Below are positions 14,301-48,674 of a stretch of 64,000 bases of DNA, in pieces. Both the position numbers and the translations under genes were made by a program. Source of the DNA: Eledone cirrhosa (lineage: Eukaryota); NCBI GenBank assembly GCA_964016885.1, contig OZ024744.1, forward strand, positions 103,602,001 to 103,666,000, in the 5' to 3' direction. Position 1 is the stretch's first letter; each line of letters begins with the position of its first letter. The notes under the pieces were generated by a model, which saw only the letters and a program-made list of their open reading frames with translations, searched no databases and was not told the DNA's origin.

Positions 14301-14346
14301 ATGTAGGATTGCTATAATTTTCTTTGAAATATTTTTTTATTTTCAG

Positions 14347-14382
14347 ACTTGTCTTCCTCATATTCACAAGTGACTGATCATG
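14347..14382 (+). CDS. Micro-exon 1 (36 nt, phase 1-1) of a putative host micro-exon gene; (D)LSSSYSQVTDH
   Basis: Polypyrimidine tract plus TTTCAG acceptor, and G|GTAAGT donor. Length is 3n and only the phase-1 frame is stop-free. Flanks are paralogous to those of the other three exons. Confidence 0.75.
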
Positions 14383-14445
14383 GTAAGTTATGATTTAAAT
14401 AGACTTTATAATTTCATATTTGTGTGCATATGTATGCATATATAT

Positions 14446-14975
14446 AGGAGGTCTCTCTAAAAAGTAACAGGACTGGTGTTACAAACAATTTATTTCAATT
14501 CCATACAACAAACTACATGGTTTCCCTTCGAGTCTAATACACTTTTCTCTTCTTCTCAGCTACGCTTCTATGGACTGCTGGAAGGCTTCATCTGGGATGC
14601 CCCTTAGCTCCTTCGTTATGGCTCTCTTGATTGCCTCCACACCTTCAAAATGGGTCCCTTAAATGACCCCCCGTGAGCTTGGGGAAAAGAAAAAAGTCAC
14701 ATGTAGCAAGATCAGGCGAATAAGGAGCTTGTTCCTGTACAACGATGTTCTTCTCAACCAGGAACTGCCAGATGCAATTAGCCTGTGATCTTCCGCATGC
14801 CCAAATCTTTGGTGATAATCTTCCAAACTCTGTCACAGCTCATACCCGTCGCACTTGCAATCAGTAAAAGAGTCAGCTGTCAATCACCTGCCTCACGCAC
14901 TCAATGTTGGCCTCTTGCTCCTGGGGTCGTCTTCCATGGCCTCGAGTCTATTTAAACCAGTCGAAAATCTGTGAG
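14446..14975 (-). mobile_element. Mariner 3' remnant
   Basis: QAPYSPDLATCDFFLFPKL; TIR-like GGAGGTCTCTCTAAAAAGTAAC after TA. Confidence 0.8.
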
Positions 14976-15009
14976 TGCGATGGGAAGTCGTGTCTTCTGT
15001 ATTACTGCA

Positions 15010-16100
15010 TAATGTCAAAGATCTTAATCCTGTGTCATCCCCTTTGAGATGTGTAATTGTGCAAGGTCAGCTTTTATCACCTCATGTCTTCTTGGGTCTT
15101 CCTACTCTATGGCTTCTATCATTTTTGATCACCCTGCACATTTTCATAAAGCTGTCATCCTTCATACGCATCACATGTCCATACAAATGCAATCTCCTCT
15201 CTAACATACTGCATCTGATCCCTCTTATGCCTAATTTCTTTCTCAGTTATTTATGATTTGCCATTCGCATATATTACTATTATACATCCATGGGAGCATG
15301 CATGCTTCATTTCTTTCCAAACTTTGTATGTCCTCTGCACATAGTACCCAGGTCTCACTCCCATGTAACATTGATATTTGTATACATGCATCATACAGTC
15401 TGCCTTTCATTTTAAGGGTAACACATTTTGTAATTAACAGTGGTATTAGCTCTCTGAACTTTCTCCATCCCGTTCTTACTCTGGCTTCTGTACTTTCAGA
15501 ACACCTTCCTCGACTGCTCATTTCATCACCCAGGTAACAAAATAGAACCGTCTGGGTGTTTGGAATTTCTTCTTTAATTCAGCCATAGATTCAGTTATGA
15601 GAGGTAGATCATCTGCATACAGAAGTTCCAAAGGGCAGCCAGTCTGAAACACTTCTATTATAACCTGTAGGGCAATAATAAGCAGGAGAGGGTTAAGGAG
15701 GGAACCCTGATGAACACCTACCTGTATGCTAAATTCTTCATTATATTCATTGTTAATTCTAACCTTGCTGACTGTTTCTTTATACATGGCTTGTATAGCT
15801 TTCACAAGCCATTCATCAACACCTAGTTTTCTAAGAGCCTACCAGATAATGGGGGGGGGGGGGGGGGGTATTCTGTCAAAGGCTTTTTTCAAGTCCACAA
15901 AACTAAGTAGAGGGGATTACTTTTAGCTAGGTACTTCTGCAGTTGCCTCACAAGGAAGAGAGCATCCATGGTGCTTTTTCCTGACACAAATCAAAACTAC
16001 ATTTTATCAAGGTTAATTCTGTCCCTAATCAGCTGTGCGACAGCTCTTTCTACGACCTTCTTAATTGGTCTAACAACTTAATGCCTCTATAGTTTTCATA
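15010..16100 (-). mobile_element. RTE LINE RT fragment (abundant family in this window)
   Basis: GVHQGSLLNPLL, LLYADDL, GWRKFRELIPLL, LHGSETW. Confidence 0.9.
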
Positions 16101-44699: not shown

Positions 44700-46270
44700 C
44701 CTCAGCCTTGTATAGCGCAAGAGGTCACGATCTTGTGTCATTGCCTTTTGGGAGGTGTAATTGTGCAAGGTCTGCTTTTATTACCTCATCCCAAGTCTTC
44801 CTAGGCCTGCCCACACCACGGCTACCATCAACTTTGAGTGCTCTGCACCTTTTTATACAGCTGTTATCTTTCATAAGCATCACATGTCCATACCAACACA
44901 ATCTCCTCTGCTGCATGCAACAACTGGTCCCTTTTATGCTTAATTTCTCACACAGTACATTCACACTTTGCCGTCCACGTATATTACTATTGCACATCCA
45001 GCAAATCATGGAGGCTTTATTTCTTTCCAATCTCCGCAGGTCCTCAGCACACAGTGCCCAGGTCTCGCTGCCGTGCAACATAGTTGTTCTTATACATGCA
45101 TCATACAGTCTGCCTTTCATTTTAAGAGAAAAACCTTTTGTAGTTAGTAACGGTAGTAGCTCCCTCAATTTTCTCCAACCCAATCTCACTCTGGTTACTG
45201 TGCTTTCAGAACATCCTCCCTCATTACTGATTTGGTCACCCAGGTAACAGAAATTATCTACCACTTCTACCGAGCCCTCTGGTCATTTGAAAGTGATTGT
45301 ATCCTGAGGGTTCTTGCTACTTACTGCCTCTGTGCACTGGCCACATGTAAAACCTACACTCTTTGTTAGCCTGCCTGAGATCCCACTACATCTCTTATGT
45401 ACCCATTGCTTGCATTTGGTTCATTGAATGGAATTTCTACCTACTCCTTTTCTGCACACTGAGCAGGGCCATTTCCCAGAGGAGATCTGGACCCTGTTTT
45501 TCCCTTCTACTTACTAGGACACCAACCTGCAAGATAAATTCTTCTCTATAGTCATTGTTAATTATGAGCTATTCTTCTATACATGGCTTGTACTGCCTTT
45601 ACAAGCCATTCGTCAATCCTAGTTTCCTAAGAGCCCACCAGATAGTGGAACAGGGGACCCCTCAAAAGCTTTCTCCAGGTTTACAAAAGCCGGGTAGAGG
45701 GGCTTACAGGGGCTTACTCTTAGCTAGGTACTTGTGCAATTGACTTACAAGGAAGAGGGCATATGTAGTACTCTTACCTTGGACAAATACAAACTGCATC
45801 TCATCTAGGTTAACTCATTCTCTACTTAGCTGAGCTATGACTCTTTGAGAATCTTCATAACCTGGTCAACCAACTTAATGTTTCTATAGTTTTTTCTACC
45901 TATGCCCTTGTAGTAGTTCACAATGCTGCTACTACACTAGTTATTGGGTATGACACCATTTTGTATAACTTGGTTTACAATGCAGGAGACTATGGTGTGG
46001 CCCACCATACCTGATGTTTTCAGCCTCCCAGCAACTATCCCTGAGGGGCCAGCTGCCCTGTCTGACTTCATATCCTTGATTGCCTTACTATATTACAGCT
46101 AACTTGTAGAGCTGGTCCTTCTGTTCGGTTGACATGTGACAAACTTTCTTTTTCCCATGTATTCTCCTCATTCAGTAATCTTTCATAGTGGCACTTCCAT
46201 GCTCCCTTCTTTTCAGCATCAGTGAGGGAAAGTTTGCCAAATTCTTTTCGAACACACTTCTCCCCACTGA
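44700..46270 (-). mobile_element. RTE LINE RT fragment with internal deletion
   Basis: VDNFCYLGD, GWRKLRELLPLL, GRPRKTW, WKCHYERLLN. Confidence 0.9.
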
Positions 46271-47819
46271 CATCATCATGGAAGATAGATGTTAAACGAT
46301 GATGCTGATGATACACATGTGTATGTACATACAAATATATATGTACAAAAAGACCTACTAACTACAAACAAAATGTTTGAGTAGATGGAAGTTACAAAAA
46401 GAATGAAGAATAGAACCCCTTAGCTGCTTTACAGTTTCCCTTGCTTCCCAGTTTTTCTTTATCTTATTTTCAAGTTTATTTTACTTTCCATTGGACTTCC
46501 TTATTTTAATTTTTTAATTTTATTTTTTTTATTTTTTATTATTTTTATATTCACTTATCTCTATATTTTGTTTTTCAATTGTAAGAAGTACTAGATACTT
46601 TCTTTAGTGTGTCATGGTTTATTAACTCTAAACAGACGTTTAGATTGATTAAATAATTAAATATATATATATATTTGTGTGTATAGATATCCTTACCTTC
46701 ACTATAAAACCCAACCTCATTCATGATTCCCCCCTCCCCCACTATCACGTCTTAGTTGTTATCATTGCAGTAAAACTCCCCATGATAATGGAGGTCACCA
46801 TCCTCTCCTACTTAGTACCTTGTCAAATCACACTACATATATCATACTCCCATGACATTGTACTTATCCTCTTTTTTACCTCTACACCATCACAACCACA
46901 TTTCCTTCACTAGAAAGGGCTCTTTAACGTCCACTTTTCCATACTAGCATGCAACAATAAATGCAACAAATACTCCCTGAAAGGTGGTTTGCTATAGGAA
47001 GGACATACCACAGTAGAAACAATGCCACAAAAGACTTTTGTAGAATTGTTAAAGATCATCATCATCATCGTTTAACGTCCTCTTTCTATGCTAACATAGG
47101 TTAGACGGGTTGTCCCATTTGAGGCAAGTTGGGTCAGGTGACAATGTCTTGCTCATAACTGTTTCTGGCTAGGTTTCTACAGCTGGATGCCCTTCCTAAT
47201 GCCAACCACATTAACAGGTTGTGCTGTGCTTTTCATTGTGCCTCCTACACAACCACTTTACAGTGCAAGGGTGGTGTATTGAAGGGAGTATAGTGGTTAA
47301 GAGGTGCCTACAAGATAGTATTTGAGTCTGCGTACAAGGGAAGGCTGGTCTTCTATAATATTGCATAACGCCAAAGGTCTCGATCCTGTGTCATTGTCTT
47401 TGAGAGGTGCAATTGTGCAAGGTCAGTTTTTATCACCTGATGACTACAACCTGTGATGTGGTTGATGATAGTAATTACATGTAGACATAGAAAACTTACC
47501 AAATAAACTATTGTGACTACTCCTGTGTCATAAACAGGAGTAGTCACAGTATGGCGTACTCAAAGATGTTATTTCCATGAGTATCACACCAGCTATAGTT
47601 TAGTAGCCCTACCTTTGACATACATGTCTGCATGACTCACAGGTAAAAATTACTTTTGAACGTCATTCTGGGAGCAGACTAACAACCCCCATATATTTAG
47701 CTGCTTGCTGACTTAAGTTTAGGTCCTCTGCTTCTTTTCAAATTCCATAATACTGGTAACAATAAGATTTTGCCACTGGGCTCTGTCTGCTGCAAGATTT
47801 TCCCATGTTTTGGTATTGA

Positions 47820-48350
47820 TTATCCTTCAGTCAGTCTTTAAAGCACTTGTGTGTCTTGCACTGCAGGCTCTCAACAGTTCTCCATACAATATTTTCATTA
47901 GGAGTCTGCTGTCCTCTAGGCATACTATGTGACTTGACCCTCGGAGACACTGTTTCATGTTCAAAGTCTAAATAGCTGGCAGACAGGCCACTACAGCACA
48001 TTAATGTTTGGTATATGAGATCTCCATCAGATCTTGTGGATGGAGTGCAAGAAATTTTGGTGGAAACATTCAAGGCACTGAATATGTTCACAGTATGTTG
48101 TCCATATCTCACATCCATACAGCCTGACTGTAAGCACAGTTGATTCATATACTTAGACCTTCATGCACATACTGATATCTCACTGCAACCACTTGCACTT
48201 CTCCAGCTTAGCAAAAGCATCAGAAGTTTTAGACAACCAGTAGCGTTCCTATTCATCAAAGGTGCTGGTTCTGGAGAGAGAACTACCCAGGTATATGACC
48301 ATATCCACAACCTTCAATATTTTCCCTTTGATAGATATGGATGGTGGAAT
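47820..48350 (-). mobile_element. Decayed RTE (BovB-like) 3' fragment
   Basis: YLGSSLSR, SGCMD/YG remnants and HKCFKD, similar to the 8350-11900 family. Confidence 0.6.
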
Positions 48351-48537
48351 ATATAGCTTTCTGGGTGTATACTACTGTTATTTACATACATATGCTCACA
48401 TATACATACATACATGCATAAAGACACACACACACACACACACACACACACACAAATATATATATATACATACATTTATACTGATACCAACATATCAATG
48501 TAGGATTGCTATCATTTTATTTTATATTTATTTTCAG

Positions 48538-48597
48538 ATGCGTCTCGTAGACCTTCTTATGTCATACTTCCAATATTTAAACAAAAACCTGTACGTG
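48538..48597 (+). CDS. Micro-exon 4 (60 nt, phase 1-1); (D)ASRRPSYVILPIFKQKPVR
   Basis: ATGTAGGATTGCTATCATTTT...TTTTCAG acceptor and G|GTAAGTTATAATTTA donor. Length is 3n. Phase 1 is open (phase 0 is also open). Confidence 0.78.
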
Positions 48598-48674
48598 GTA
48601 AGTTATAATTTATACTGACTTTGTAATTTTGACTTCATGTATTAATATATTGTATTTTTCTATTATATATATCT

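Follow-up and report, generated by a model that had tools for sequence, protein, structure and literature searches.

Four short segments within a 64,000-nucleotide stretch of the Eledone cirrhosa genome (GenBank assembly GCA_964016885.1, contig OZ024744.1, positions 103,602,001 to 103,666,000 of the forward strand; hereafter the window) are, in our judgement, probably coding exons from the interior of a single gene that expanded by cassette duplication, the exons having afterwards outpaced their flanks in divergence. By cassette we mean a small phase-1 exon together with its acceptor-side and donor-side intron edges, and by window gene the plus-strand chain of cassettes that runs through the window on this contig, which is called C28 below. 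The evidence that the cassettes are coding is indirect but strong, and the exons are probably spliced and translated into an intracellular, low-complexity and probably disordered protein of about 200 residues.

The cassettes of the window are recognised by their flanks. The motif ATGTAGGATTGCTAT stands at 14301, 25278 and 48498, with a variant at 26292, and the donor flanks of the three main cassettes begin at 14383, 25454 and 48598, all as the original prediction had it. The exact 15-mer is expected by chance about 1e-4 times per window strand, and the 21-nt pattern has three exact matches in the 3.0-Gb genome, all of them in the window and on the plus strand (control, 0). The similarity of the donor flanks does extend past the splice consensus, as had been claimed, with positions +7 to +36 aligning above shuffled sequence in the three main pairs (p 0.002-0.004). 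The predicted exons, all on the plus strand, measure 36, 63, 27 and 60 nt; each is a multiple of three nucleotides (3n), in phase 1-1, free of stops in phase 1 and enclosed by CAG and GTAAG, at 46, 113, 56 and 40 nt from its motif. In cassette 1 a TACA/CA microsatellite (13982-14297) is followed by the acceptor-side flank with motif, polypyrimidine tract and CAG (14301-14346), the exon (14347-14382) and the donor flank (14383-14414). Cassette 2 comprises an acceptor-side flank (25278-25390) that is locally doubled, with a degenerate second copy near 25343 ahead of the acceptor, an exon at 25391-25453 and a donor flank at 25454-25481. Cassette 3 combines a long acceptor-side flank (26064-26347), in which the motif variant lies, with an exon at 26348-26374 and a donor flank of a different subtype, GTAAGATCTAAT, at 26375-26410. 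Cassette 4 is preceded by an ATAC/AC microsatellite (48402-48475) and consists of an acceptor-side flank (48498-48537), an exon (48538-48597) and a donor flank (48598-48660) that can be aligned with its sisters to about +60. A microsatellite had been proposed ahead of every exon, and this holds for three cassettes (dinucleotide fraction 0.79-0.87), whereas cassette 3 follows a short TA stretch (0.56, the 95th percentile of the background being 0.51).

The exons had also been described as impossible to align with one another. Among the four this is correct for five of the six pairs, which do not exceed shuffles (p 0.09-0.99), while the sixth reaches p 0.026, uncorrected. It does not extend to exons outside the window, because those at 48538, 26348 and 25391 align with sister exons and the one at 14347 does so weakly. 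Exon 48538 aligns with three exons of a head-to-head sister gene, and exon 26348 matches the 3' portion of a sister exon of 57 nt located 39 kb downstream, with flank homology to sister cassettes that reaches about 270 nt upstream of it.

With looser patterns the same flanks are found in arrays across C28, where they mark hundreds of cassettes, and on contig C18. The donor pattern is matched 115 times, and once in the control; among the 100 matches listed, 99 are on C28, in runs that keep mostly to a single strand. The neighbourhood read around the window spans 1.2 Mb, and the cassette catalogue holds 241 cassettes from the five regions read, their acceptors having been picked blind to frame. 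As many as 232 of them are 3n, 226 of these with phase 1 open as well, compared with 113 and 38 of the 258 other GTAAG donors that served as controls. Since the catalogue copies are not independent, the count was also made among 144 distinct 3n exons: phase 1 is open in 138 of these, phase 0 in 74 and phase 2 in 11. The exons range from 15 to 78 nt, most of them from 42 to 66 nt. The original prediction had named as its refuting case a dispersed repeat in random orientation without enrichment for 3n open lengths. This is a repeat-rich genome, and many cassettes stand in tandem units with intervening microsatellites, but a dispersed non-coding repeat that imitates splice sites is scarcely credible and largely refuted, as clustering, co-orientation and 3n phase-1 openness lie far above the controls and no stops occur where 14 would be expected.

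The window gene is a plus-strand chain of 15 open, co-oriented cassettes that extends over 145 kb, its limits being window coordinates -1517 and 143757. The introns measure 0.9-22 kb, and the split codons form no stop; the acceptors of this chain were chosen by hand. The sister gene (C28:103136536-103487432, minus strand) lies head to head with it, 113 kb upstream, and has 38 cassettes, the first three of which correspond to the first three of the window gene and the last two to its last two. An ATG inside the first cassette of the window gene (C28:103600500) is a possible start, although the sister gene lacks it. In the sister gene, 171 kb separate two of the cassettes, and 17 near-identical exons form a recent run. 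Six sister cassettes with a moved acceptor are located at C28:103711774-103745757 (plus strand); what could be exon in two of these corresponds to intron in the rest, and whichever alternative acceptor is used, the length stays 3n. A minimal family member at C28:102736557-102743393 has two cassettes followed by a terminal exon and carries an ATG and a C-F-P-C motif; it faces a duplicate, one cassette long, of the cassette that comes first in the window gene.

Divergence was compared in seven non-overlapping sister pairs from the window gene and its head-to-head neighbour, taking +7 to +36 as proximal flank and +37 to +75 as distal intron. Changes affect 82 of 239 exon sites (0.34), 52 of 271 distal intron sites (0.19) and 11 of 210 proximal sites (0.05), and the contrasts are significant (p 1e-4 and 4e-6). 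Exon divergence above that of the intron, together with the clustered, co-oriented, phase-1-open cassettes and the long flank homology, supports the proposal of cassette duplication followed by faster exon divergence. Nonsynonymous against synonymous change (N/S) was obtained from tree-based parsimony counts in five paralogous exon sets, corrected for base composition and with CpG sites and stop-bearing exons excluded. The ratios are 2.3 (p 0.002), 1.1, 1.4, 5.2 (p 0.008) and 1.4, those of 1.1-1.4 not being significant, and the pooled value is 1.68 (p 3e-4). Among 115 equal-length paralogous exons, with stop-bearing ones kept, no stop was observed, while the flank mutation spectrum leads to an expectation of 14.1. 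Proximal flanks show 185 changes where the distal intron rate predicts 342; they change at about half that rate, and at a quarter of it in the sister pairs, to which ordinary splice constraint likely contributes. As judged from these counts, the exons keep their frame and openness, their amino acid sequence is either free to vary or driven to do so, and the flank is under some constraint. The limits of these counts are the use of parsimony, gene conversion, discovery via flank similarity, noisier distal alignments and low synonymous rates that splice constraint could explain.

The same duplication history could also have run its course without positive selection, the gene being a sequence-indifferent spacer or in decay, its exons drifting neutrally at a rate that their G+C content raises, and its flanks owing their apparent conservation to splice constraint, gene conversion and ascertainment. 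We consider this rather unlikely, although it agrees with the three non-significant sets, with the slowed proximal flanks and with array C, in which N comes close to the expectation from distal intron. The rearranged 3' end of the window gene and a stop in one array C first exon would fit decay, against which the absence of stops speaks in the paralogues. Drift alone does not sit well with sister-pair exons that diverge more than distal intron, nor with a set of 42-nt exons that has accumulated 31 nonsynonymous and 2 synonymous changes.

The original prediction had offered a second reading of the flank, as a dedicated splicing-control element common to unrelated exons, either a UGC enhancer or a branch point (candidate sequence TAGGATTGCTAT). 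The reduced rate of the proximal flanks and a donor consensus, GTAAGTTATAATT, common to four of the five exon sets are in keeping with such an element. Known microexons of this kind, the eMIC/Srrm-dependent neural ones, have UGC near the 3' splice site and a strong CUAAY branch point (PMC8797185). In contrast, the octopod flanks carry TGC at -20 to -4 in 6 of 137 distinct cases, and YTRAY is rarer in them than in shuffles (39 vs 67), so that neither the enhancer nor the branch point was borne out. Only 9 of 137 exons are as short as 27 nt or less, the motif varies between subfamilies, sister exons can be aligned, and flank homology runs over hundreds of bases, without a stable fold (z +0.8 to +1.5) or an Rfam match at the cassettes. 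We regard a dedicated control element as improbable.

Gene ends are seen in related arrays. Arrays E and C share a 75-codon first exon that ends in the family donor flank, and they also share a terminal D-M-stop exon, whose third codon is TAG in one gene and TAA in two. The first exon occurs in 17 copies (ten on C28, six on C18 and one on C159), 15 of them open. It is rich in Arg and Lys, carries a C-P-C or F-P-C motif and, as judged by eye, has no hydrophobic core; by general motif rules, such a basic, Cys-bearing exon would suggest a nuclear or lipid-anchored intracellular protein. Gene E (C28:4542721-4672600, plus strand) consists of the first exon, 124 cassettes alternating between 60 and 66 nt, and the terminal stop exon. 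An in-frame stop lies in the last of these cassettes, and a first exon with a protein identical to that of gene E lies at C28:220205 on the opposite strand. Gene C (C28:46467349-46570500, plus strand) has 56 SPR-rich cassettes with no in-frame stop in the 41 tested, although a TGA stands in its first exon. The six C18 copies of the first exon are found at C18:5.2-9.4 Mb together with six copies of the last cassette, in both orientations.

The search for protein homologues was limited to the first exon, because a lone cassette exon offers too little length. The first exon of gene E, with its 75 residues, gave no Pfam hit above cut-off, no match in two word-seeded searches and none in the Atlas, whereas the positive control, a JIP4 exon of the same genome, matches Octopus and Argonauta proteins at 97%, which marks the genome as that of an octopod. 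Two weak hits from a profile search (E about 6e-5), to repetitive proteins of fish and Vibrio, were taken as chance. The literature searched, with subscription papers and supplements outside its scope, held no description of such an octopod family.

It may be asked whether the window gene instead encodes a secreted or surface product, in the manner of the schistosome micro-exon genes (MEG) or polymorphic mucins, with an undiscovered signal exon and isoforms arising by exon skipping. Its small symmetric exons, its tandem cassettes separated by microsatellites and predicted products with a combined S, T and P fraction of 0.22-0.34 would suit such a role, and no first exon has been located for the window gene to contradict it. 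The sole first exon identified in the family is basic and lacks a hydrophobic core by eye, however, and a scan for signal-like exons upstream of the window gene returned 19 candidates, none of them convincing. A membrane-length hydrophobic stretch is absent from all cassette exons (best 11-residue hydropathy 1.76). A secreted product thus seems quite unlikely. The closest architectures are those of the polymorphic mucins SmPoMuc and of the MEG genes. SmPoMuc is described (PMC2576457) as a clustered multigene family with pseudogene members, in which a small exon with its intron flanks is repeated in tandem, microsatellites lie between the units, and introns are more alike than exons. Its genes begin with a signal peptide of 22 residues, repeat a single 27-nt exon up to 20 times and have a constant 3' body. 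Unlike SmPoMuc, the octopod family has many exon types (15-78 nt) in numbers of up to 124 per gene, a known first exon that by eye is without a signal peptide, and a gene end formed by a two-codon stop exon. The MEG genes (PMC4350168) likewise have a coding region of mostly tiny symmetric exons, and a recent family expansion. They also show a raised ratio of nonsynonymous to synonymous rates (dN/dS); among octopod paralogues the ratio is 2.3 and 5.2 in two sets and 1.1-1.4 in three. According to the same source, all MEG products have a signal peptide, the genes are restricted to platyhelminths and exon skipping has been demonstrated. Unlike MEG, the E/C first exon has no hydrophobic core by eye, and most octopod exons are larger than strict micro-exons.

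Two further comparisons are instructive. The likeness to conotoxin and venom genes invoked by the original prediction holds for the pattern of divergence, as conotoxin genes also combine conserved intron starts and ends and intron simple repeats with a hypervariable coding exon (PMC3862624). It does not carry over to the protein, since the related octopod genes have neither signal peptide nor Cys framework. Conotoxin genes are described there as having two or three exons (signal, pro and Cys-framed mature peptide) and as being duplicated whole, whereas the octopod cassettes were duplicated within genes, at 15-124 per gene, and encode Cys rarely (0.2-2%). Disordered proteins with tandem symmetric exons (PMC3632108) share the internal tandem duplication and the low-complexity product, and symmetric duplicated exons are presented there as a general trend of such proteins. 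The predicted octopod protein differs in being built almost entirely from exons of this type; in addition, the whole gene has been amplified, and amino acid change keeps pace with synonymous change or exceeds it. The PEVK region of titin may belong with such proteins.

C28 is probably the Z chromosome, because it carries exons of SPAG9, one of the 19 genes common to the Z of three coleoids (PMC10925132); the description of a cephalopod Z is itself recent. This placement rests on one marker gene, for which 8 of 10 octopus JIP4/SPAG9 protein matches fall on C28. The route through Pfam gave no match for PF16471 and found PF09744 on C1 and an unplaced contig, and the marker was located only with the whole JIP4 protein. 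JIP4/SPAG9 is split in the assembly, with its first exon on the unplaced contig C1420:5800-6099 and its 3' exons at C28:59.35-59.39 Mb.

Ampliconic sex-chromosome families of mammals and Drosophila consist of near-identical copies, some of them opposed, that encode lineage-restricted and fast-changing proteins; a mini-exon design is not known to be typical of them. The octopod family would resemble them in its near-identical copies, some facing opposite ways, on a probable sex chromosome, with 10 of 17 first exons on C28, although Z is identified there by a single marker gene, and in its lineage-restricted, fast-changing predicted proteins. Unlike ampliconic families, it has six copies on another chromosome. 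That the family is amplified, Z-linked, of germline type and under sexual selection or genetic conflict is the most speculative step; it strikes us as possible but doubtful, and a germline role is proposed by analogy only.

Several observations weigh against the reading of the four segments as exons of one gene that grew by cassette duplication. Splicing and translation are inferred from genomic sequence; three sequencing runs, examined outside the window's exons, cover intron and exon alike without splice joints and so behave as DNA. The stop and N/S tests rest on paralogues rather than on the window gene, and in the largest set N lies close to the rate of distal intron while S is low, so that splice constraint acting on synonymous sites could account for an N/S above 1. 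The G+C content is higher in exons (0.35-0.48 vs 0.20-0.23), and G/C sites change faster. Discovery of the cassettes by flank similarity inflates flank conservation. The 3' end of the window gene is disturbed, since the 15-cassette chain is followed by two more cassettes, one without a good acceptor and the next with an early in-frame stop, and then by an inverted piece of family sequence; the gene may be decaying. The frame-blind rule succeeds for 13 of 18 window-gene cassettes, and 15 of 15 requires hand-chosen acceptors. Its misses are two probable false calls, one alternative acceptor and two terminal cassettes; at cassette 2 it takes the second CAG, giving 46 nt with a stop. The window gene's first exon was not found by inverted and low-copy BLAST, tblastn or nhmmer, which yielded transposon debris, and the link to the E/C family therefore rests on flank similarity. 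Linkage to Z comes from a single marker, and 7 of 17 first exons lie off C28. A shared 153-nt piece, considered as a first-exon candidate, was rejected when it proved to be a dispersed repeat.

Under the reading of cassette duplication that we favour, the gene would have grown by repeated duplication of a small phase-1 exon with its intron edges, through unequal crossing-over or slippage that the flanking microsatellites may have helped. After duplication the exons would diverge faster than the flanks, the nearest 40-50 intron bases being held by ordinary splice constraint and perhaps by gene conversion. Because every exon is 3n and in phase 1-1, gain, loss or skipping of an exon would keep the frame, and exon number, length and sequence would be free to turn over. 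Tandem duplication of exons whose intron edges stay conserved is, as a process, already known.

Other features of the window are of a different nature. An inverted pair of 1375 nt at 96% identity (22081-23455 and 31103-32477), likely two transposon copies, contains an open reading frame without a Pfam match. Fragments of long interspersed elements with endonuclease and reverse transcriptase domains lie at 33027-33617 and 52058-52744. Tandem repeats occupy 37371-37897, 13277-13538 and 39572-39802 (a 198-nt repeat resembling short interspersed elements (SINEs), an 81-nt minisatellite and a TTTC tract). A marginal tRNA match at 54069-54132 on the minus strand (29.9 bits against a cut-off of 29) is probably the head of a SINE.

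The evidence points to a family of at least 17 genes and two divergent neighbours without a database homologue, and its largest member is predicted to encode about 2,600 residues from 124 exons, a gene shape that annotation easily misses. It holds cassettes of many ages in one genome, in which the turnover of exon sequence, length and acceptor can be observed with the frame kept. In its fullest form, which we think unlikely, the proposal is of an octopod-specific, Z-amplified intracellular family in which interchangeable phase-1 mini-exons (15 to 124 per gene) make up almost the entire protein behind a basic, Cys-bearing head, and in which the gaining, losing and skipping of exons, together with shifts of their acceptors, would serve as a germline combinatorial diversifier under positive selection, for reproductive conflict. 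If true, this would be a micro-exon gene system acting inside the cell, unlike secreted host-parasite antigens, and, if gonad-specific and Z-linked, the family would be a candidate case of gene amplification on a cephalopod sex chromosome.

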